Notes: generated from the letters alone by a model not told the origin. A stretch of DNA of 31,440 nt from Armatimonadota bacterium (GCA_018056145.1 JAGPGE010000001.1:1-31440); one strand, 5' to 3'; numbered from the stretch's first letter, positions 14,813 through 26,617 are shown. Made by a program: numbers and translations.

Positions 14813-15889
14813 CTACCGCGCCCGCAGCACCAGCCACAGACCGAGTGACCCGAAGATGATGTTCTGCGCCCAGGCGGCCACGATCGGGTTCAGGTCGCCC
14901 ACAAGACCGAATGCAAGTCCCCACGAGCGCACGCCGTTGTAGAGGAAGACCACCAAGATCGAGATGACGATCCCCACGAAGCTGCCCAGATGGGCGAACT
15001 GCATTCCCAGGGGTGCGGCGACCATCGCGAAAACCAGGCAGGCAACGGGCATGGAGTACCGGAACTGCAGCCGGACTTCCCACCTTTGCGGGTCCTGACC
15101 CGAAGAGCGCAGCAGGTCGACGCGCTCGCGGATCTCACGAGCGCTCATCTCGTAGTCCGTCCGCTGGTCGCTGTAGTACTCGTCGAGGGCGCTCCACAGG
15201 CTTATGGCCTCTGCTTCGAACGGCTCCCATGGCCCGAGTTCGCTCCCGCGAGCGCCTAGTCGCAGCCGGATACCCTCGCGCAGCATCCATTCATTGCCCT
15301 GGCGTTCGGCGCGCCGGGCCGCAGTGATGACCTTGGGGCTACCGTCGTCTCTCTGGTCAACAACCAGGACATTCTGTAACTGGTTGCTGACCACATCCAT
15401 ATGCCCAACGTAGATGATCTGCCCCTTTTCGTCGCGGAAGACCTGATCGCTTCGCGACTCCATGACAGGCTGGGTGCGGGTCATGGTGTTGAAGACCCTG
15501 GTGCCCCGGGTGTTGGCAGCGGGTACCAGGAACTCCTCGACCGCAAACGAGACAACGGTTGCCGCCATCGCGAGAGCCACAATCGAGACCCAGATGCGCC
15601 GCAAGCTCGCTCCTCCGGCGCGCATGGCAGTCGCCTCTCCGGCCCTCGCCATCTGCGTCGTCACCATGGCGGCGCCAACCAGAATGCCGACGGGGAGGGA
15701 CCAGGCGAATACACGGGGGAGGCGGAAGAGGAAGTACTGACCGATGAGAGCAGGCGGAACTCTGAGGCCGATCACCGTATCGCCGAGTTTGATTGCCGTC
15801 TCGGACAGCATGATGACCATGAAGACGGCGACGCCGATGAGCGTCGGCATGACCATCAGTCGCAGGACATAGCGGTCGATCAGACGCAT
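14813..15889 (-). CDS. LptF/LptG (YjgP/YjgQ) family permease
   Basis: MRLIDRYVLR start, GEATAMRAGGASLRRI, periplasmic beta-jellyroll region, RYSMPVACLVFAMVAAPLG, AAWAQNIIF. Confidence 0.92.
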   Translation of the reverse strand: MRLIDRYVLRLMVMPTLIGVAVFMVIMLSETAIKLGDTVIGLRVPPALIGQYFLFRLPRVFAWSLPVGILVGAAMVTTQMARAGEATAMRAGGASLRRIWVSIVALAMAATVVSFAVEEFLVPAANTRGTRVFNTMTRTQPVMESRSDQVFRDEKGQIIYVGHMDVVSNQLQNVLVVDQRDDGSPKVITAARRAERQGNEWMLREGIRLRLGARGSELGPWEPFEAEAISLWSALDEYYSDQRTDYEMSAREIRERVDLLRSSGQDPQRWEVRLQFRYSMPVACLVFAMVAAPLGMQFAHLGSFVGIVISILVVFLYNGVRSWGLAFGLVGDLNPIVAAWAQNIIFGSLGLWLVLRAR

Positions 15890-15949
15890 GGTGGGACTCG
15901 CTTGGTGGGGTGGACCGGGAATGGGTGGAAACCGGGCTCGCGACCCACG

Positions 15950-16351
15950 TCAGTCGGTCCAGGGACGGCCGTCCGCCGCCTCGAGAACCACGAATGCAAC
16001 GGCTTGCTCGCGTTCGTGAGAGAGCGACACATGAATGCGTGTCACACCGATGGACTCCGCCCAGCTCGCGGCGGTTCCCACGAGCCGCACAACCGGGCGC
16101 CCTCCAAACTCGTTGGTCACGTGGATGTCCAGGAAGCGCACACCGCACGCCCAGCCCGTCCCCAGTGCCTTCATGGTGGCTTCCTTGGCGGCGAAGCGCG
16201 CGGCCAGCCTCTCGGCCGACCCCGCTTTGCACCTGGCACGTTCCTGCTCCTCGGGCGTGAAGACGCGGTCGAGAAAACGGGCGCCATACTTCTCGGTCAT
16301 GTACTGCATACGCTTGACCGAGCAGATGTCTGTGCCAACACCAAGGATCAT
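15950..16351 (-). CDS. acpS: Holo-[acyl-carrier-protein] synthase
   Basis: MILGVGTDICSVKR, AARFAAKEATMKALGTG, GRPVV, HVSLSHE. Confidence 0.96.
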   Translation of the reverse strand: MILGVGTDICSVKRMQYMTEKYGARFLDRVFTPEEQERARCKAGSAERLAARFAAKEATMKALGTGWACGVRFLDIHVTNEFGGRPVVRLVGTAASWAESIGVTRIHVSLSHEREQAVAFVVLEAADGRPWTD

Positions 16352-16370
16352 CGAGTTCACCCTTGCGCAT

Positions 16371-17429
16371 TCACTCGTGGATCGTGACCCGAGTGCCGAT
16401 CGGTATGACTTCGTACAGCTCGATGATATCGGGGTTCGGCAGACGGACGCAGCCGCCCGATATCCTGCGTCCGATGGATGAAGGCTGGTTCGTTCCATGT
16501 ATCCCGATGGTCCAGCCGGTGACGCGCCCTCTGGCCGACGTGCCCATGAACCTTGCACCGAGCGGATTGCGGCTGCTACCGCCGGGGATGAACTCGCCCC
16601 AGTATGCGCGCCACCCGGGCCACACACACTTGTTCTGGATATGGAACCGGCCCACTGGCGTGTTCTCGCCCGCACCAGTGCACGCGCGGTAGTGTTTGGC
16701 CAACTCCCCGGCGTAGAACACCCGGACCCAGCGGTCTGAGCGGTCGATTTCTATGCTGAACGCCTGCGCCGGGATGAGGGCCCGGACCGTGGTGGCGCCG
16801 CGGGTCAGACACACCACGGAGCCCCCTCGTTCCTGGGTCAACTCCAGGCCCAGTGCTACTGCCGCGCTGCGAACCGGAACATACAGGTCGTGACCCTCCA
16901 CAAACGGTGGAGCGGGAAGGGTCAGGCTGTGCAGGTTTCGCCGAGCTGTACGTGAACCTGGCGCGAACTCGGTGACACCCTCAGACCCGGATACCAGGGC
17001 GGGTCCAGCACCGTCCCAGGTGAACTGATTGCCAAGGCTCGCGCAGAGGTCACGAAGGCTGACTGCTGCGGTCCCTTCGTGGACCCTGGCTGTCAGCAGC
17101 GGCCCGAGTTCGTCTCGGATGCGCTGGATCCGGGCGACCAGATCATTCCTGCCCAGTGTCTCATAAGCCGGAACATCGTCATACAGGGAAGCGCTCGCAG
17201 GCGCCACGACGCCTGCGTCGGGAACCAAGGCGGCGGTGTCGACGTAGGCCCAGAGCCTGGGCTTCGCAGCGGATGCCGGAGGACCAGTCGACCAGGTGTC
17301 GACGAACACAGAGGGCGTCAGTGACAAGCGCAGGTCGACGCCCCAGATGAGTACATAGAGTATCCCAGCTGTCGCAGCGAGGGGGATTGCGTTGCTCAGA
17401 CATTGGTGGCCTGAGTTGTGTCTTGGCAT
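16371..17429 (-). CDS. L,D-transpeptidase (YkuD domain) with N-terminal anchor and copper-amine-oxidase-N-like domain
   Basis: IEIDRSDRWV, IGIHGTNQPSSIGRRISGGCVRL (catalytic His and Cys), IGTRVTI; LYVPVRSAAVALG motif. Start placed downstream of the promoter at 17487-17515; exact start uncertain. Confidence 0.88.
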   Translation of the reverse strand: MPRHNSGHQCLSNAIPLAATAGILYVLIWGVDLRLSLTPSVFVDTWSTGPPASAAKPRLWAYVDTAALVPDAGVVAPASASLYDDVPAYETLGRNDLVARIQRIRDELGPLLTARVHEGTAAVSLRDLCASLGNQFTWDGAGPALVSGSEGVTEFAPGSRTARRNLHSLTLPAPPFVEGHDLYVPVRSAAVALGLELTQERGGSVVCLTRGATTVRALIPAQAFSIEIDRSDRWVRVFYAGELAKHYRACTGAGENTPVGRFHIQNKCVWPGWRAYWGEFIPGGSSRNPLGARFMGTSARGRVTGWTIGIHGTNQPSSIGRRISGGCVRLPNPDIIELYEVIPIGTRVTIHE

Positions 17430-17486
17430 GCGGTTGCCGGACGCTCTGATGGGGAGTACCTGCCGGGCCGACCCGTCACACGAATG

Positions 17487-17515
17487 AGTATACAGCCCGC
17501 TGACACCCGCGTAAA
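17487..17515 (-). promoter_or_regulatory. sigma70-type promoter of the ldt-acpS-lptF/G run
   Basis: TTTACG-N17-TATACT with extended TG. Confidence 0.7.
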
Positions 17516-17558
17516 GATGCCACGGGCGCCGGAGTCGCGACGCTCTGGCAGGCACCGA

Positions 17559-17586
17559 ACCGCCCGGGATGGCGCTCCCGGGCGGT
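17559..17586 (-). terminator. Hairpin downstream of the isomerase-like gene
   Basis: 11-bp perfect stem ACCGCCCGGGA/TCCCGGGCGGT with a 6-nt loop; weak U tract. Confidence 0.55.
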
Positions 17587-17612
17587 GCATCCCATAGCGT
17601 TCGAGGGTGACT

Positions 17613-18491
17613 CTAGCTCTTCAGGTTCGCAACCATCCCGAGAATCTTCTCGAAGCAGATGCGGCTGGCCTGCTCGCCGCCGGCGGAGAAAGCCGCGCCA
17701 CCCGGCTTGTTCATCGTCTCCTCGTCGAGTTGCGAATCGGGCCGCCAGTGGGTCTCGAGGCTGCAGGCTCCCTCGTACCCCATGTCCACGAGCGCCTGGA
17801 ACTGTGCGGGGTAGTCGATATACCCGCCATCACCCACCGGGACGCAACGGGCGCCTCCCTCAGCCTGCGCGTCGCGGACCGCGTCTTTGATATGCATGTG
17901 GATCATGAAGGGCTTCATCCGCTCAAAGGCGTTCGGGAAAGGCAGCTCACCGTCGGCGGCATATACCTCGTTTGCCGGGTCCCAGATTGCGCGGACGCGG
18001 TCGCTGGCGAGGTCCTTGTACATTGCTTCCGCCTCGGCAGCGGTGGCGATATGCGTGGATGCCTCGTTCTCGATCCCGATGTACACGTCCTCCTGTTCGC
18101 AGATGCGGATCGGCTCGGAATAGGCGTCCAGAAGCTGCTGCCACACGGCCTGTGCGGGCCCGGTCTTCCAGAAGGTGAACCCGCGGATGATCTTGCAGTC
18201 GAAGCGGTGCGCGATCTCGATGCAGCGGCGCAGGATACCCAGATGCTCCTGGTACTGGTCTGCGTCGCCAAGATCGCACTTCAGGAAAGGCGATGCAATG
18301 CAGGGCACGCTGAACCCGCTGGCATCCATGATCGCCTTCATCTGGTTGAGCTGCTCGTCAGACAGCTTGTGCGGCGGGGTGTCCCACACGGACCGCGGCT
18401 CCACCATGGCAACCCCGTACTCCTTGCAGACATCGACGACCCGCTGGAAGTCCTGGGAGATCTCGTCGCTGATGACGCTGAGTTTGAACAT
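17613..18491 (-). CDS. Sugar phosphate isomerase/epimerase (AP-endonuclease-2/xylose isomerase-like TIM barrel)
   Basis: MFKLSVISDEIS; metal-ligand pattern IENE, WDPAN, HMHIKD, SLETH. Confidence 0.88.
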   Translation of the reverse strand: MFKLSVISDEISQDFQRVVDVCKEYGVAMVEPRSVWDTPPHKLSDEQLNQMKAIMDASGFSVPCIASPFLKCDLGDADQYQEHLGILRRCIEIAHRFDCKIIRGFTFWKTGPAQAVWQQLLDAYSEPIRICEQEDVYIGIENEASTHIATAAEAEAMYKDLASDRVRAIWDPANEVYAADGELPFPNAFERMKPFMIHMHIKDAVRDAQAEGGARCVPVGDGGYIDYPAQFQALVDMGYEGACSLETHWRPDSQLDEETMNKPGGAAFSAGGEQASRICFEKILGMVANLKS

Positions 18492-18504
18492 GCATATCAC
18501 CCTG

Positions 18505-18535
18505 AAAGTAAGGGCCGCGCAGGATGTGCGCGGCC
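18505..18535 (-). terminator. Candidate terminator closing the two-lipoprotein operon
   Basis: 9-bp stem GGCCGCGCA/TGCGCGGCC with a 5-nt loop, followed by CTTACTTT on the minus strand. Confidence 0.6.
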
Positions 18536-18599
18536 TGGTACGCTGTTAGGCTCGAGTTATGCGGCAACGCGCGCCGGATTGCCGGGGCCTGCCGTAGCG

Positions 18600-19814
18600 C
18601 TACTCAGCGCCACCCATGTCACCGGGAGGAGGCCCGGCCGCGGCGCCACCAGGAGGCCCTCCCGCGCCACCAGGCGCCATGTCAGCGGGAGGTCCGCCCG
18701 GTCCGCCCATTGCGGGAGGCCCGCCCGGTCCGCCCATTCCAGGCGGTCCGCCGGGACCACCCATGCCGGGAGGTCCACCAGGGCCACCCATTCCAGGCGG
18801 TCCACCGGGGCCACCCATGCCGCCACCCATCCCACCGGCTGCGCCGGCACCACCAGCGGTCGCGGGTGCGCCGCCACCCGAGGCGGCAACCTCGTCACGC
18901 TGTTTCTGGCCACGATGGTACCAGCATGCCAGGTCGGTCTTGTCCTTCCCGTGCGCGTGGAGCTTGTTTGGACAGCGCCTTCCGGTAACCGCGGTGTAGG
19001 CGGTGCACTGGTCGCCCTCGCCAGAGCCCGTGAAGTCCACGGGGGTCGGCGCTCGGGCAGGCCAGTTGCCAAAGGGCACGTCGAAGTTCCACTTCGCGCC
19101 GCACTTGGGGCAGCGCTGGCCCTGTCGGCTGAGTACGCTCGTCGCGTAGCCGCAGCGAGAGCAGTGCTTCTCGGACCCTGCCCAGCCGCGGCTGCACGTC
19201 GGACAGCGGGGCCCGAGCTGTGTTCCGGCCATCACATCGTGGCAGTTCGGGCAGTGGTAGATCAGGCCGGTTGGGAATGAGTCGCGGGCGCCGCAGCGCG
19301 GACACTCGACGTGCTTCTCGCCATCTTCCATCGGCCAGCGCATGAGGCTCTTGGGCATCGGGAGCCCGCACCACTTGCACCGCGGCACGTACCCGTGGGG
19401 GACTGAGAAGTGGCCGCCATGTTCGAGGATGAGGTGATCGGCCGCATCAGTCGCACCCGCGAAGAGGCTGTTACGCTTGGTCTCAATCTCGAGCTTCTGC
19501 TTGTCGTCAGCGGCAGACTGTGGAGACTCATACAGGCGCGTGGCATTGGCAAAAGCCCACTGCGTGTAGCCCATTGCAGCAGGCATCTCGGCTTCGCTAC
19601 CATAGCTGTCGGGCGCCATATACCGGCCCTTGCGGATGTGGTAGTGGGCCTCCTGCAACTCGAACTCGATGGCGGCAGCCATCGGCGAGTAGCTGGGCCA
19701 GCCCGGGTCTGGCGGCGGCGGCGCGGCCGCCTCCGGCTCCGGCTCCTCTTTGCACCCAATAAGCAGCACCGGAATGGTCAGCAAGATGGCTGCAATGATC
19801 AGGCGATGTCTCAT
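18600..19814 (-). CDS. Hypothetical lipoprotein B: six CxxC motifs, a C-x10-C-x15-C-x2-H motif and a Gly/Pro/Met-rich tail
   Basis: GGAGGG RBS; MRHRLIIAAILLTIPVLLIG-C lipobox (Cys21); CKWC, CPRC, CPNC, CPTC, CSRC, CPKC; (MGGPGGPP[G/A])x5. Confidence 0.88.
   Translation of the reverse strand: MRHRLIIAAILLTIPVLLIGCKEEPEPEAAAPPPPDPGWPSYSPMAAAIEFELQEAHYHIRKGRYMAPDSYGSEAEMPAAMGYTQWAFANATRLYESPQSAADDKQKLEIETKRNSLFAGATDAADHLILEHGGHFSVPHGYVPRCKWCGLPMPKSLMRWPMEDGEKHVECPRCGARDSFPTGLIYHCPNCHDVMAGTQLGPRCPTCSRGWAGSEKHCSRCGYATSVLSRQGQRCPKCGAKWNFDVPFGNWPARAPTPVDFTGSGEGDQCTAYTAVTGRRCPNKLHAHGKDKTDLACWYHRGQKQRDEVAASGGGAPATAGGAGAAGGMGGGMGGPGGPPGMGGPGGPPGMGGPGGPPGMGGPGGPPAMGGPGGPPADMAPGGAGGPPGGAAAGPPPGDMGGAE
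18684..18818 (-). repeat. Five 27-bp coding repeats (MGGPGGPP[G/A])
   Basis: Units at 18684, 18711, 18738, 18765 and 18792; nearly identical protein sequence with synonymous DNA divergence. Confidence 0.92.
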
Positions 19815-19834
19815 CCAGCGCCCTCCGGACTGGG

Positions 19835-19860
19835 GGTCGGGCCAATGACGATGCCCGACC
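19835..19860 (-). other. Intercistronic hairpin between the two lipoprotein genes
   Basis: 8-bp perfect stem GGTCGGGC/GCCCGACC with a 10-nt loop and no U tract, in the 54-nt gap just before the RBS of gene B. Confidence 0.55.
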
Positions 19861-19868
19861 TTGCCCGT

Positions 19869-21701
19869 CTAGTTGCGTTGCGGCTGACGGTCGTTCGGTA
19901 TGGCTGCGGCTCGCAGGCGAACCTCGTGAGCCTCAAGCTCCATCTGGTGCAGCGACGGCACGCGTTCGGGCGACGGCGAGGCCGCGACCCAGGCCTCGTA
20001 CGCCTGGCGGTCGGCCTTGGTCGGGAGCACCGAACTGCTCGCGAACACGGCCTCGGCGGTCTTGTGGGTCTTCTGCGCGTTCTTCATCCCCTGCTGGCGC
20101 CTTGCGAACGTCGGCGAGTTCCAGGAGCGGGTGAGACGGTAACGCCCATCGGGGCTGGTGTAGCAGGACGGACACTGGATAGCGGATACGCGGTACTGAT
20201 CACGATAGCCACAGTCCAGACATTCATGGGGTTCGACGACCTCGAACGTGCCGGGGATGGCCGGACGCGTTGCCTTGCCGCAGCGTGAACAGCGCCACAT
20301 CTGCCCGTCTCGTGTAAGCTTCCGGCCGCAGGAATCGCAGGTGTAGGTGGGAACATTGGCGGACACGCGGGACAGGTAAGCCCAATTGCGCGACCGCTCC
20401 CAGTGCCAGTTGTGCCCCAACTTCAGGTAGTTGTCGAACACCTCGACCATCAGGCGGCTGCGCTTGGTCTCATCGCGCTCGACCGATGCCGGGTCATAGT
20501 TCGCGTTGCCGAAGCTCACGCGGATCGCGTTGATGGTGTGGGAAATGGTGGGGGAGATGAGGCGGCCGATCTTGGTTGCGTCCACGTTCTCCATCAGGAG
20601 ACCGTAGCGGCAGATCGCGTGGATTGCAGCCAGCCCGACGCGCGCTTTGGCGATGGCATCAGCGCTGTCCAGCAGGTCTGAGTAATCAGCCTGTGCCAGC
20701 ATTTTGCGCATCGCCCAATGCCACAGGTAGGCTTCCCAGTCGCTCTTGGTCTGGGCGGCGTGAGAAAGCTGCGCCAGCGGGAAGTCGCTGTACTTGGTCT
20801 GGACCTCTTCGAGTAACGAGCGGGCCATGAAGAACCAGTATTCGTGGAACCACTTCTGCTGGTTCATCTGGACACCGCGGGTCTTTTGACAGACGCGCTT
20901 GACGGCGATTGCGAGGGCCAGCGGAGGAACGCCGTCCGCAGCGGGAGCGGCTCCAGCGGCAGGACCGTCTCCACCGGGCCCACCAGGACCGCCGGCACCC
21001 GGTCCACTGGGGCCGCCCGGTCCGCCCGGTCCACCAGGTCCACCAGGTCCACCAGGTCCACCAGGTCCACCAGGTCCACCAGGTCCACCAGGTCCACCAG
21101 GTCCACCGGCCTGGGCGAACTGCATGCCGCCCGAGGAGGCCTGCACTGCCGGGGCGTCTGTGTCGTCCCCATCGCCGGTCTTCTTGTCAGCGGCAGTGGG
21201 TGCCGGAACTTCGCGCGTCAGGAATGTTCGCAGTATGCCGAGCGCTTCCTCAACCGCCGCGACCTGCTTGGCAGTTGCGGGAGGAGCCTTTTCCACCTTT
21301 GCCGGCTGAGCTGCGGGACCGCCGGCAGCGCCGCCTTCGCCCTCGTCGCCCTCAGACGGACCTGCAGCTGGGCCACCAGGTCCGCCGGGTCCACCAGCAC
21401 CCTCACTGGGTCCACCCGGTCCTGCCGGTCCTGCCGGTCCTCCAGCTGGTGGTGCGCCCCCGGGCGCGCCTGGGCCTCCAGGAGGACCAGCGGGACCACC
21501 GGGCATCCCGCCACCTTCAGGCATGCCCATCGGTGCGCCGCCGGGTGCACCCGCCATCATCTGTTCAGGGCCCCCAGTCGGGGCCCCGCCTGCGGCGTCT
21601 TCACCCTTCTTGCCGCAACCCGTGCCGGACAAAGCGATGAAGGCCAGTGCTGCGATGCAGAGTACGATCGCTGGTAGCAATGCTCGCGCCCGATTGCGCA
21701 T
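19869..21701 (-). CDS. Hypothetical lipoprotein A: two Gly/Pro-rich regions, a helical core and four CxxC motifs
   Basis: ATG 21701 with GGGAGG RBS; MRNRARALLPAIVLCIAALAFIALSGTG-C lipobox (Cys29); (GGP)x11; CDSC-x12-CSRC and CLDC-x12-CPSC. Confidence 0.88.
   Translation of the reverse strand: MRNRARALLPAIVLCIAALAFIALSGTGCGKKGEDAAGGAPTGGPEQMMAGAPGGAPMGMPEGGGMPGGPAGPPGGPGAPGGAPPAGGPAGPAGPGGPSEGAGGPGGPGGPAAGPSEGDEGEGGAAGGPAAQPAKVEKAPPATAKQVAAVEEALGILRTFLTREVPAPTAADKKTGDGDDTDAPAVQASSGGMQFAQAGGPGGPGGPGGPGGPGGPGGPGGPGGPGGPGGPSGPGAGGPGGPGGDGPAAGAAPAADGVPPLALAIAVKRVCQKTRGVQMNQQKWFHEYWFFMARSLLEEVQTKYSDFPLAQLSHAAQTKSDWEAYLWHWAMRKMLAQADYSDLLDSADAIAKARVGLAAIHAICRYGLLMENVDATKIGRLISPTISHTINAIRVSFGNANYDPASVERDETKRSRLMVEVFDNYLKLGHNWHWERSRNWAYLSRVSANVPTYTCDSCGRKLTRDGQMWRCSRCGKATRPAIPGTFEVVEPHECLDCGYRDQYRVSAIQCPSCYTSPDGRYRLTRSWNSPTFARRQQGMKNAQKTHKTAEAVFASSSVLPTKADRQAYEAWVAASPSPERVPSLHQMELEAHEVRLRAAAIPNDRQPQRN
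21028..21107. repeat. Perfect 9-bp tandem repeat (GGTCCACCA)n encoding (GGP)n on the minus strand
   Basis: 8 identical units (21028-21099) plus 8 nt of a ninth, preceded by two degenerate units (21010-21027). Confidence 0.97.
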
Positions 21702-21759
21702 GCTGGGATCCTCCCGGGACTGGACCGGGGCCACGGGACTCCGGAAACAGCCGGACATG

Positions 21760-21785
21760 AAAAGAGGCCGACAGACTGACGGCCT
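21760..21785 (-). terminator. Terminator-like hairpin inside the 5' leader of the lipoprotein operon
   Basis: AGGCCG-tcagtctgt-CGGCCT followed by CTTTT, between the promoter and the RBS. Confidence 0.45.
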
Positions 21786-21846
21786 GCCCAATGCATCCGA
21801 AGCGTCTGGGCCCGGGTCAAAGCGGGCTCACCCTACGCCAACGCTC

Positions 21847-21876
21847 ATTTTAGCACAAAAGAACGGCGACACGCAA
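21847..21876 (-). promoter_or_regulatory. sigma70-type promoter of the lipoprotein operon
   Basis: TTGCGT-N18-TAAAAT with extended TG (TGC TAAAAT). Confidence 0.7.
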
Positions 21877-21904
21877 ACGCCATATGACCGCTGATGCGGA
21901 TCGC

Positions 21905-22777
21905 CTACTCGATGCCCTCATGGGGCTCAAGCGGCATCAGCCGGAAGTTGGGCAGCAGGTCTGCAGTGCGGTCCATCCGCGTGTTGTGCGACAGGTTCCA
22001 GAAACCCTCGTAGCGCTCGTTATCCTCATCGTAGTCGAGCACGGACCATGAAAGCCCAACAATCTCGCCGGCTGTCAGCTTGTGGATTGCGCTGAACTCC
22101 GGGCCAAGGTAACTCGCGTAGTTGAACGGACTTATGCTGAACTCCAGGCACAGTGGGCCCGGTTCGCCCGGCCCAAAGGCATAACTGTACGCGTGCTCAC
22201 TCCAGGGCTTCTCAACCAACCACTGCTGCGATCCCCATACCCAGGCCCACGGCCTGCCCGGCCCTGGCGGGGTGAAGATGTGGTAGTTCTGGCAATGTGT
22301 GCTCTTGAGCTTCTCCTCGACTTCGGGCGTCACGTCCGAGTAGCTGTGATACTGGCCGCCGGAATGGTCGGCGTCAAGCACGACCTCGAAGATGTCGCCC
22401 CAGTCCTCCCGGAAGTTATGCAGATCATCCCAGACGCGGTACAGGAAGTACAGCCGGTTAGTGGTCGGACTCCATGCCACAGTGACCTCGACGCGCAGGT
22501 CATCGGGCGACATCCGGTCGTCTTTCCCCATGACTGTGTCGCGCAGATGACTGCCGTCCACACTGTACTCCGCCGGCACACGCGCCCAATCGCCCCCATC
22601 CCCATCGATCACGGGCAATGCGTCATCGGGAAAGCAGTATATCTTGTACTCGATCCCAGGTGGCTGGTGCCCATTGACCCTCGATATCGGCACGATGCAA
22701 GCCAGGCAGACCAACGCCGCCAGGACGGCCGGGTTCAGTGCCTGCGCATATCCGCGATCTGCTGTTCGCAAACGCAC
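21905..22777 (-). CDS. Secreted hypothetical protein, CBM9/DOMON-like sugar-binding fold suspected
   Basis: GTG start with GAGG; hydrophobic N-terminal segment; PVIDGDGGDW, VAWSPTTNRLYFLYRVWDD, DIFEVVLDAD, LEFSISPF, IVGLSWSVLDYD pattern. Confidence 0.75.
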   Translation of the reverse strand: MRLRTADRGYAQALNPAVLAALVCLACIVPISRVNGHQPPGIEYKIYCFPDDALPVIDGDGGDWARVPAEYSVDGSHLRDTVMGKDDRMSPDDLRVEVTVAWSPTTNRLYFLYRVWDDLHNFREDWGDIFEVVLDADHSGGQYHSYSDVTPEVEEKLKSTHCQNYHIFTPPGPGRPWAWVWGSQQWLVEKPWSEHAYSYAFGPGEPGPLCLEFSISPFNYASYLGPEFSAIHKLTAGEIVGLSWSVLDYDEDNERYEGFWNLSHNTRMDRTADLLPNFRLMPLEPHEGIE

Positions 22778-22786
22778 TTGCTCGCC

Positions 22787-23506
22787 TCATATCCGTTCCA
22801 GCGGCGGCACATTGCCGCGCCGGAACTGTGGGCCGCCGCTCGGGGCCGCCCATTTGATCGCGTTCAGGATGACTCTGAGCACTTCCTCGTTGTGGTAAAT
22901 GGGGTGTGTCTCGTGCCCCGGACGGAAGTAGAAAACGCGACCATTTCCCCGGCTGAAGCAGCAGCCACTGCGGAACACCTCGCCGCCGGGAAACCAGCTA
23001 ATGAAGACAAGTTCGTCGGGTACCGGAATGTCGAAATGCTCCCCGTACATCTCGGTGTTTTCGATCTCGATGTACTCGCCCAGTCCGGCAGCAATGGGGT
23101 GCCCGGGGGCCACGACCCAGAGCCGCTCCTTCTCGCCTGACTCGCGCCATTTGATGTCACAGGTGGTGCCCATCAGCCGCAAGAAGACCTTGCTCTTGAG
23201 GGCCGAGTGCAGCACGATCAGTCCCATGCCTGCCAGTACACGAGTGCATACGCGGTCTGCGACCTCATCGCTCACCTCGCCCTGAGCCACGTGACCCCAC
23301 CAGATGAGGACGTCCGTATCATCCAGCACCTGCTCTGTCAAGCCGTGTTCAGGCTCATCAAGGCAGGCCAGCCTCAGCCTGAAATCAGTGTTGCGCTCGA
23401 GGTAGTCCGCAATGGCGGCATGTATGCCCTCGGGGTAGATCTCTCGGCAGGCGTCCAGTTGTCTCTCGTGCCTGAACTCGTTCCAGAGCGTCACGCTCAG
23501 CGCCAT
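22787..23506 (-). CDS. thuA: ThuA domain (trehalose utilisation) protein
   Basis: [71 protein letters not shown]. Confidence 0.88.
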
Positions 23507-26542: not shown

Positions 26543-26617
26543 GCGCCCATAGTCTAGCGGTCAGGACGGCGGGTTCTCAGCCCGCTAGCCGGGGTTCGAA
26601 TCCCCGTGGGCGTACCA
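26543..26617 (+). tRNA. tRNA-Glu (anticodon CTC)
   Basis: 75-nt cloverleaf: acceptor GCGCCCA/TGGGCGT, D-arm GTCTAGCGGTCAGGAC, anticodon arm GCGGG-TTCTCAG-CCCGC, T-arm CGGGG-TTCGAAT-CCCCG, encoded ACCA end. Confidence 0.96.

Follow-up and report, generated by a model that had tools for sequence, protein, structure and literature searches.

A neighbouring pair of predicted lipoproteins with Gly/Pro-rich tracts and CxxC ribbons in one Armatimonadota lineage

The window, a stretch of 31,440 nucleotides, comes from an uncultured Armatimonadota bacterium whose source is anaerobic digesters, and contains two neighbouring genes, A and B (Table 1). The ATG of gene A lies 7 nt downstream of a Shine-Dalgarno sequence, GGGAGGA (21715-21709). 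An in-frame TTG at 21791, which would make the product 30 aa longer and place the extension ahead of the signal peptide, is unlikely to be the start. Compared with a same-genus genome, dN/dS is 0.12 for gene A and 0.07 for gene B, and the low-complexity tracts are constrained as well. Purifying selection acts on both, and they are conserved coding genes.

Table 1. Features of the A-B locus, in window coordinates
Feature	Position	Strand	Description or basis
Promoter-like element	21847-21876	minus	TTGCGT (21876-21871), 18-nt spacer, TGc-TAAAAT (21855-21847); read from sequence
Gene A leader, ~115-140 nt	21702-21846	minus	Shine-Dalgarno and terminator-like hairpin (21770-21788)
Gene A	19869-21701	minus	610 aa predicted lipoprotein precursor (P0001), ATG start
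A signal peptide and lipobox, residues 1-29	21615-21701	minus	lipobox pattern, Cys29
A Gly/Pro/Ala-rich disordered tether, residues 30-255	20937-21614	minus	composition, tandem repeats
A helical core, residues 256-445	20367-20936	minus	conserved; invariant Trp, Arg, Asp, Glu abundant
A zinc-ribbon insert (putative), residues 446-520	20142-20366	minus	two Cys4 ribbons
A C-terminal helical region, residues 521-610	19872-20141	minus	alignment and AF2; retained in P0023
A-B spacer, 54 nt	19815-19868	minus	8-bp hairpin (19835-19860), GGAGG upstream of the B start
Gene B	18600-19814	minus	404 aa predicted lipoprotein precursor (P0002)
B signal peptide and lipobox, residues 1-21	19752-19814	minus	lipobox pattern, L-I-G-C
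B Pro-rich linker and N-terminal helical module, residues 22-140	19395-19751	minus	DPGWP, EEAHYH-RK-R and DHL--E motifs
B three putative zinc ribbons and C-x10-C-x15-C-x2-H knuckle, residues 141-305	18900-19394	minus	six CxxC
B Gly/Pro/Met-rich C-terminal tail, residues 313-404	18603-18878	minus	composition, tandem repeats
Terminator-like hairpin 3' of gene B	18503-18535	minus	9 bp, 8 GC, weak T tail

Contigs from RNA libraries of four studies, which are uninformative as to strand, transcript ends and a single mRNA, cover A-B without a break and span the junction in 4/4 assemblies, including the spacer for which RT-PCR had been proposed. Several bins flanking A-B are empty in two of the RNA runs. 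Co-transcription of A and B is part of the favoured reading. The claim that the pair forms a self-contained operon stood in part. It agrees with the contig ends, which lie just 3' of the promoter-like element in two studies (21831 and 21814, the latter with adapter) and at 18486-18553, around the hairpin 3' of gene B, in all four, one with adapter sequence at 18503; two other runs, however, read through from the gene upstream of A. The promoter, intergenic hairpin and terminator described earlier are all present, but the promoter-like element is under the threshold of the consensus scan, and the hairpin does not fold better than shuffled sequences (z -0.9) and is conserved within the genus only, the spacers of other lineages (25-168 nt) having none. 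The terminator scan picked up the 3' hairpin at 18513-18535. The leader of gene A matches no Rfam family, and its fold is likewise not better than shuffles (z -0.9).

In both proteins the N-terminus is basic and precedes a hydrophobic stretch, after which comes a lipobox cysteine. Lipoproteins were called on a basic n-region, an uncharged hydrophobic h-region and a lipobox Cys within ~35 residues, and the PROSITE-style (PS51257-type) pattern was found in A, in B, in 8/8 full-length A homologues and in 9/10 B homologues, distant ones included; Cys21 of B is invariant in 10 homologues. Lgt (PF01790, E 2.4e-59) and LspA (PF01252, E 4.1e-35) are encoded side by side on contig C496 of the genome. 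As originally predicted, A and B carry Sec/SPII-type signals, with lipidation predicted from the pattern. Tat export was considered and rejected, the N-termini (MRNRARALL and MRHRLII) having no adjacent RR before the h-region.

Residues 31-255 of A consist of 34% G, 20% P and 18% A, against 9% G and 6% P in nine neighbouring ORFs, and contain a 9-bp repeat array (20970-21107). The tether is broken by an amphipathic helix at about residues 150-175 that is conserved in the alignment. All indels relative to the same-genus genome fall inside the tether, one of them being 18 aa, or 6 GGP units. The AF2 model of A shows helices, with pLDDT up to 90 at model residues 40-110 and about 30 at 112-195. 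The CxxC motifs of A start at residues 455, 471, 494 and 510; the first ribbon (C455, C458, C471, C474) is invariant within the family, and the second (C494, C497, C510, C513) is lost in 6/13 aligned A sequences. In B, the most constrained part is residues 22-140 (dN/dS 0.016). Six CxxC motifs follow at residues 146, 171, 188, 204, 218 and 235, together with a C-C-C-H site (C270, C281, C297, H300) that is invariant in 10 homologues; the third ribbon is lost in one. The B tail (residues 313-404) is 48% G, 24% P, 15% A and 9% M; a 27-bp repeat array occupies 18686-18822, and one RNA run has a 27-nt in-frame deletion at 18781. The paired CxxC motifs and the mirrored order of the tracts, N-terminal in A and C-terminal in B, are thus where they had been placed. 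Taken as tandem knuckles 10-25 residues apart, they form two pairs in A and three in B, and their cysteines vary little or not at all within the family.

The tracts are not a special feature of the pair, for about 15 other predicted signal-bearing envelope proteins of the genome carry G/P/A/M tracts, among them BamB-like and PD40 propellers. Tract length differs between strains and genera, and the heads do not. Several A and B homologues have literal GGMP-like repeats, and the Met content of the tracts (0-13%) is not conserved. The tracts would therefore be generic spacers, used on many envelope proteins of the organism. A collagen-like triple helix was rejected: the 27-bp repeat of B gives 12 Gly-X-Y triplets, yet the periods in homologues are 4-8 residues, and neither protein matches Collagen (Pfam) at E ≤ 1. 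In E. coli, a disordered N-terminal linker is present in about half of the lipoproteins bound for the outer membrane, and those of the LpoA/LpoB type share with A a lipobox, such a linker and a globular head held off the membrane (El Rayes et al., bioRxiv 10.1101/2021.01.05.425367). A and B have no sequence or fold similarity to them; the A linker (~225 residues) contains a conserved helix, and the tract of B is C-terminal. The linker of LpoB is far shorter than that of A, and zinc ribbons are not known as a feature of lipoproteins of this type. The GGMP repeats of eukaryotic Hsp70 C-termini and the GGM tails of GroEL are Gly/Pro/Met repeats of cytosolic chaperones, which the A and B tracts, their Met content not being conserved, resemble in composition only. 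Extracytoplasmic disordered regions function in cell-wall homeostasis in B. subtilis, where RsgI and PBP1 are, as A and B would be, membrane-anchored envelope proteins with disordered tracts within the cell-wall mesh (PMC9732909); these are other proteins from another phylum, and the analogy extends to design only.

Neither A nor B matched any known family, solved structure or fold, in agreement with the original prediction. About 12 homologues of A were found among 1.84 billion representative proteins, B has about 10 homologues, and the pair is limited to one Armatimonadota family and one rare distant locus (L018). In each of the 10 lineages that have A, the distant one included, the gene immediately 3' of it on the same strand is B, so the expected synteny was observed at every locus with A. 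The genes downstream of the pair (AP_endonuc_2, YkuD, ACPS and LptF/G) are syntenic within the family too; since the whole neighbourhood is, common descent explains part of the adjacency in close relatives, and the independent test of pairing is one distant locus only. There, in a neighbourhood otherwise different from that of the family loci, a ribbon-less A (P0023, 39% identity over the helical core), which lacks the zinc-ribbon insert entirely, adjoins a mini-B (P0030) of 144 aa with a lipobox, a DPGWP/EEAH-H module (38% identity, E 1e-13), a G/P/M tail and no ribbon. The conserved core is the all-helical domain of A and the short N-terminal helical module of B, each joined to Gly/Pro-rich disordered tracts. 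Because the distant pair keeps lipoboxes, A core, B module and tracts in the absence of ribbons, the ribbons are an accretion and not the essence of the system, and the earlier placing of metal sites at its centre, given also the losses in homologues noted above, is not borne out.

Prediction of a complex between the two cores gave a score of 0.45 (runs 0.00, 0.54 and 0.45), against 0.00 for the best of three controls. The mark used is reached by 58/80 solved complexes and 2/110 mismatched pairs, and at ≤ 0.60 by only 7/80 solved complexes plus both of the mismatched pairs that passed. At least 1% of contacts are shared between the runs, and the partner pLDDT is 50 or more. This weakly suggests that A and B may bind physically. 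With mean pLDDT values of 55.6 and 54.4, the monomer models are too poor for a fold or interface to be named. The TPR-like stretches proposed to mediate A-B contact were not recovered, no TPR family matching A or B at E ≤ 1. That A and B are a pair nonetheless stands, on the order of the genes in 10 lineages and the bridged junction, with the complex prediction as a weak addition.

The ribbons match known families below their curated cut-offs. B scores 20.6 bits against Pfam DZR (cut-off 27.3) and A 22.7 bits against DUF7129 (cut-off 30), matches of rubredoxin type, including rubrerythrin-type domains, are faint (E 0.03-0.7), and no zinc-ribbon or rubredoxin family tried against A and B reaches its cut-off. 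Tandem CxxC-x(10-21)-CxxC motifs, often by low-complexity linkers and a hydrophobic segment, are common to A/B and to DZR (PF12773), DZR_2 (PF18912) and Zn_Ribbon_1 (PF13240). Double zinc ribbon membrane proteins usually have cytoplasmic ribbons, placed N-terminally of a TM helix, whereas those of A and B follow a cleavable lipoprotein signal and should be extracytoplasmic. CxxCG ... CPxCG pairs are shared with rubredoxin-like Fe(Cys)4 knuckles (RUBY_RBDX PF21349, NCBIfam NF033497), in which the spacing is longer than in A and B. A c-type cytochrome (CxxCH) was rejected, C191 being followed by H in 7/10 homologues and by S, N or A in the rest. Searches of metagenome-assembled genomes with four Pfam models detected no DsbA, DsbB, VKOR or Thioredoxin_4 in the organism's own genome (85% complete) and no DsbB, VKOR or DSBA in five others of the family, two of which are 98% and 96% complete; other oxidases could exist. 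Dsb enzymes have been linked to oxidative folding of exported proteins (PMC12453122). As none was found in these six genomes, Cys4 sites could remain reduced after export and hold metal, which eases the objection, raised at the outset, that exported cysteines usually form disulfides.

The reading we favour, at somewhat less than even probability, is that A and B are real co-transcribed lipoproteins forming a tethered envelope complex with structural zinc modules in one Armatimonadota lineage. After lipidation, the A head would stand at the end of a flexible tether long enough to span the peptidoglycan or the periplasm, and the B head would remain near its own membrane, trailing a 90-residue tail; binding of the two heads would give a scaffold or bridge tethered within the envelope. 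The zinc ribbons (two in A; three in B with the CCCH knuckle) would be a late addition in this family, most likely small structural Cys4 metal modules, probably for zinc, that stiffen or enlarge the heads, and would be tolerated outside the cytoplasm because the lineage apparently lacks a DsbA/DsbB/VKOR oxidising pathway.

That A and B are instead independent envelope neighbours, alike in design through local duplication or domain shuffling and descent and forming no complex, is unlikely. The inherited part of their adjacency and the weak complex support are in keeping with it, and the first ribbons of A and B look homologous (hhalign probability 81%), which suggests module exchange and not partnership. 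It accounts poorly for adjacency and order surviving at the distant locus while the rest of the neighbourhood differs, for ribbons gained or lacking in both genes together, for a short, bridged spacer with no conserved terminator, and for the contrast with the complex-test controls. Uncleaved N-terminal membrane anchors, or surface-exposed stalked adhesins, in place of periplasmic lipoproteins are highly improbable: the lipobox of A (G-T-G-C) is atypical at position -3, one B homologue has no lipobox pattern, and the A tether exceeds the linkers of well-studied periplasmic lipoproteins, which are far shorter than 225 residues, but the Cys after the hydrophobic stretch is retained in all full-length A and B homologues, distant ones too, and the Lgt/LspA machinery is encoded.

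As to the cysteines, disulfide-knotted mini-domains, the usual fate of exported Cys pairs, are quite unlikely in place of metal sites. Even cysteine counts in exported proteins usually mean disulfides (PMC12453122), all 8 ribbon cysteines of A are in CxxC pairs, and the organism is also found in aerated activated sludge; set against this are the missing Dsb and VKOR genes, a zinc-ribbon pattern, with knuckles spaced as CxxC-x12-21-CxxC and followed by Gly and Pro, and the invariant His of the fourth site, a residue suited to ligating metal and not to a disulfide. Very unlikely is a periplasmic metal-scavenging or redox complex, as the original prediction offered, with Cys4 sites (Zn or rubredoxin-like Fe) on tethers as the working parts. 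Ten CxxC motifs and the CCCH knuckle, many of CxxCG or CPxCG type as in rubredoxin knuckles, the weak rubrerythrin-type matches, possibly free thiols, an anaerobic digester habitat and tracts with up to 13% Met would suit it. It is contradicted by the distant pair, ribbon-less with all else kept, by the dispensability of A ribbon 2 and B ribbon 3 in close homologues, by the variable Met content and sub-cut-off scores, and by the lack of conserved metal-transport or redox genes next to the pair.

There is a slight chance that A and B represent a new type of envelope metalloprotein complex, in which arrays of extracytoplasmic Cys4/Cys3His centres would be borne by a pair of tethered proteins with lipid anchors. 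If that were true, the lineage would have given up oxidative protein folding, and the ribbons would be working parts, for example in periplasmic zinc buffering or iron-based electron transfer, and not structural filler.

The minus strand between 18503 and 21876 carries two ORFs, A and then B, separated by a spacer of 54 nt. In the product of A, MRNRARALL forms the N-terminus and a hydrophobic stretch leads to G-T-G-C (Cys29); in that of B, MRHRLII and a hydrophobic stretch precede L-I-G-C (Cys21). CxxC motifs are located at residues 455, 471, 494 and 510 of A, forming two zinc-ribbon modules (ribbons), and at residues 146, 171, 188, 204, 218 and 235 of B, forming three; B also has a fourth site composed of C270, C281, C297 and H300. 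Residues 31-255 of A contain 34% Gly, 20% Pro and 18% Ala, and residues 313-404 of B contain 48% Gly, 24% Pro, 15% Ala and 9% Met, compared with 9% Gly and 6% Pro in a comparison set of nine neighbouring ORFs. All the elements listed in the original prediction (ORFs, motifs, Gly/Pro tracts, promoter-like element and hairpins) were found in the sequence. The C-terminal residue is acidic in nine of ten B homologues, usually as GE, DE, EE or ED after the Gly-rich tail, in one case as a single D.

Features of the A-B region and related loci; positions refer to the window unless a contig or locus is named
Feature	Position	Strand	Description
Gene A	19869-21701	-	610 aa, ATG start, GGGAGGA 7 nt upstream
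Gene B	18600-19814	-	404 aa, ATG start, GGAGG upstream
9-bp repeat array in A	20970-21107		15.7 copies (Tandem Repeats Finder)
27-bp repeat array in B	18686-18822		5.1 copies (Tandem Repeats Finder)
Amphipathic helix in A tether	21178-21255		A residues ~150-175
Leader hairpin	21770-21788	-	Terminator-like, then TCTTTT, ~70 nt before A start codon
Block downstream of B	14813-18500	-	Xylose-isomerase-like TIM barrel; YkuD L,D-transpeptidase with Cu_amine_oxidN1; ACPS phosphopantetheinyl transferase; LptF/G
tRNA gene	26543-26614	+	Sole Rfam match in the window
A/B-type genes of distant metagenomic locus L018	L018:1-2360
Tract-bearing proteins of the window's own genome	C32 (4517-7991), C108, C120, C195, C368, C557, C584, C793, C821, C60

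A PROSITE-style lipobox pattern and a basic N-terminus are present in both proteins; the lipobox pattern is satisfied in all eight full-length A homologues (two distant ones included) and in nine of ten B homologues, and Cys21 of B is invariant in the alignment. The genes for Lgt and LspA adjoin each other in the genome. Neither N-terminus has a twin-arginine motif, and Tat export was rejected on this ground. Since basic residues precede the hydrophobic stretch, everything after the lipobox cysteine should, by the positive-inside rule, be located outside the cytoplasm. Relative to a genome of the same genus, A has a dN/dS of 0.12 and B one of 0.07; the value falls to 0.016 in the N-terminal module of B and is 0.19 and 0.06 in the two tracts. 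Every indel between the two A sequences lies inside the tracts, one of them comprising 18 residues or six GGP units. A and B are very probably real genes for exported or lipid-modified proteins.

The original prediction recognised no known family, and the searches agreed: nothing beyond sub-threshold zinc-ribbon matches came from Pfam and NCBIfam, and PDB sequence profiles yielded only ribosomal or nuclear-receptor zinc knuckles with E > 0.01. AlphaFold2 models of the cores, built with the shallow family alignments, are helical outside the ribbons and have a mean pLDDT of 55.6 (A) and 54.4 (B); residues 40-110 of the A model reach 80-90, and the strongly conserved Trp/Arg-rich stretch at 112-195 about 30. 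With query models this poor, Foldseek gave no match in AFDB clusters, PDB or ESM Atlas (TM 0.1-0.2), and an ESM Atlas feature search no usable one. A word-indexed search of 5.8 billion proteins yielded about ten homologues each for A and B, all unnamed or 'hypothetical', and a cluster look-up provided no names. An exhaustive search of 1.84 billion representatives with an HMM of the A core returned 12 proteins, all family members or ribbon noise. A is present in five of six other whole genomes of its own family and was not found in 34 genomes from other families of the same order. In a sample of 401 genomes of the phylum, full-length matches to A were confined to the window's own family (four of five genomes sampled), and the remaining nine matches were zinc-ribbon noise with E ~1e-4. 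According to record titles, the family belongs to the Armatimonadota, under the label Armatimonadia or Candidatus Zipacnadia. No relevant literature on periplasmic zinc-ribbon lipoproteins or on Armatimonadota envelope lipoproteins was found. A and B represent two lineage-restricted protein families without annotation.

The stretch is present in 20 public runs, of which six are RNA libraries; the runs come from 13 studies of anaerobic digesters, biogas fermenters, wastewater and sludge. Contigs of four RNA runs from four studies were placed on positions 16300-23000. They span A and B contiguously except for an assembly break at the 9-bp repeat, and the A-B spacer is bridged in all four runs, although contigs are no proof of a single mRNA. 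In all four runs contigs break at 18486-18553, at a terminator-like hairpin 3' of B (9 bp, 8 of them GC) that was also detected by a terminator scan. One run has contigs ending with adapter sequence at 18503 and at 21814, and a second has a contig end at 21831. Several flanking bins are without coverage in two runs, which makes uniform DNA carry-over unlikely. The pair had been predicted to form a self-contained unit; the contig ends at 21814 and 21831 agree with this, but contigs of two runs extend into the gene upstream of A, so the unit may not be fully insulated. Depth over A and B exceeds that of the flanks in three runs, a depth that cannot rank genes. A promoter-like TTGCGT-18 nt-TGcTAAAAT is present in the sequence and scores under the scan threshold. 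An Rfam search of the A leader matched no family, and a riboswitch or other known RNA was rejected. Folding of the leader and of the intergenic hairpin is no better than that of shuffled sequences; the hairpin, conserved only within the genus, was rejected as a conserved element. The terminator-like leader hairpin could act as an attenuator.

A whole-genome scan detected tracts rich in Gly, Pro, Ala and Met in some 15 different predicted proteins, almost all of which have N-terminal signal-like segments. The carriers include two BamB-like PQQ_2 propellers, one PD40 propeller and three consecutive genes on contig C32; a tract-bearing lipoprotein on C584 has an N-terminus like that of A. The tracts thus represent an envelope spacer shared across the lineage and are no hallmark of the A-B pair; the combination of tracts with at least four CxxC motifs occurs only in A and B among the 316 lipobox-bearing ORFs of the genome. 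The tracts span 127 to 280 residues in homologues of A and 61 to 92 in those of B, and a 27-nt in-frame deletion at 18781 (B) in one RNA run indicates variation at the strain level. Among homologues, Met makes up between 0 and 13% of the tracts; a Met-based copper site is thus not conserved, and a Met-rich Cu(I) site was rejected. The B repeat fits Gly-X-Y over 12 triplets; a collagen-like tail was rejected, since homologues lack this register and Pfam Collagen gave no match. The tract of the C557 protein exceeds the Pfam Collagen threshold (50.4 bits). The amphipathic helix inside the A tether is kept in all full-length homologues, distant ones included, and may be a docking motif.

B lies directly downstream of A on the same strand in every locus that holds A (ten distinct lineages), in line with the predicted co-location in other genomes. 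That the two are mere neighbours gains something from the block downstream of B, which is syntenic throughout the family, so that adjacency there is partly inherited (its LptF/G implies an LPS-bearing outer membrane). However, adjacency persists at L018, where the neighbourhood is otherwise different (MatE, YfhO, GT2), and this explanation is considered unlikely. In the L018 A protein (P0023), which has no ribbon, the lipobox, the G/P/M tract and the C-terminal helices of A are retained, as is the helical core (39% identity, E 1e-40). The next gene encodes a mini-B of 144 aa (P0030) with the lipobox, DPGWP + EEAH-H module (38% identity, E 1e-13) and G/P/M tail of B, again without a ribbon; its C-terminal end is not acidic, unlike that of B homologues, and a homologue search with it returned only itself. 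A third small lipoprotein (P0031) is almost entirely G/P/M tract. The older conserved unit is therefore a helical A and a helical B with tracts, to which a single family added ribbons in both genes. The second ribbon of A is missing in 6 of 13 aligned sequences (at least four lineages) and the third of B in one of ten. An hhalign comparison aligned the first ribbons of A and B with each other (probability 81%, E 1.2e-5), suggesting that the two genes have exchanged modules. Prediction of an A-B core complex scored 0.45 (runs 0.00, 0.54 and 0.45), the best of three controls 0.00; the runs share at least 1% of their contacts, and the pLDDT of the partner is 50 or more. Of 80 solved complexes, 58 passed the score mark, as did 2 of 110 mismatched pairs; scores of 0.60 or less include only 7 of the 80 solved complexes, yet both passing mismatches. 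The modelling thus lends weak support to contact. The idea of a partner pair draws on constant adjacency and on the score relative to the controls, against which one run of three gave 0.00; the chance that the proteins bind each other is put at about even. The TPR-like stretches proposed as contacts were not borne out, and TPR repeats were rejected for lack of any match at E <= 1.

The cysteines may be read as disulfide knots rather than metal sites, as exported cysteines usually form disulfides, a puzzle raised by the original prediction. It is eased by the genomes: searches for DsbA, DsbB, VKOR and Thioredoxin_4 gave no match in the window's own genome (85% complete), and those for DsbB, VKOR and DSBA none in five further genomes of the family (G001, G002, G004, G005 and G006), two of them 98% and 96% complete, while the same searches matched in the expected control genomes. 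The lineage may lack a classical oxidative protein-folding pathway. DsbA with DsbB or VKOR has been linked to oxidative folding of exported proteins (PMC12453122), and obligate anaerobes are described there, in a statement citing Dutton et al. 2008, as tending to avoid exported cysteines. Together these points make reduced, metal-binding Cys4 sites outside the cytoplasm plausible in this lineage. At the fourth site of B, the invariant His fits metal ligation better than a disulfide, and disulfide knots appear quite improbable. A haem CxxCH in B was rejected, the His being S, N or A in three of ten homologues. That the pair is a metal-scavenging or redox complex, as first proposed, is held to be slightly less probable still, and hydrophobic segments acting as uncleaved anchors, or the proteins being surface stalks, least probable.

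A and B are two co-inherited lipoprotein-type genes covered by RNA contigs, each with a conserved helical module. They are tentatively read, at somewhat below an even chance, as a tethered envelope lipoprotein complex with structural zinc ribbons. After lipidation, the head of A would sit on a tether of ~225 residues broken by the one conserved amphipathic helix, and that of B near its own membrane behind a short Pro-rich linker, with a trailing tail of 90 residues. The heads would bind each other, giving a tethered envelope scaffold or bridge, with the ribbons as structural zinc modules, Zn and Fe being indistinguishable by sequence. Analogous designs are found in outer-membrane lipoproteins of E. 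coli that have disordered linkers (bioRxiv 10.1101/2021.01.05.425367) and in the wall-acting extracytoplasmic disordered regions of B. subtilis (PMC9732909).

The design consists of known parts (lipoprotein signal, disordered tether and zinc ribbon) in an unusual place. To our knowledge, zinc ribbons are regarded as cytoplasmic modules, and the envelope biology of the Armatimonadota has been little studied. The A-B pair defines two unannotated families covered by RNA-library contigs of anaerobic digester and sludge communities. The many envelope proteins with Gly/Pro/Met tracts point to a lineage-wide spacer or matrix element of independent interest. If the proposed reading is true, the pair would offer a clear example from nature of metal-binding cysteine modules at work in the envelope of bacteria without recognisable disulfide machinery.
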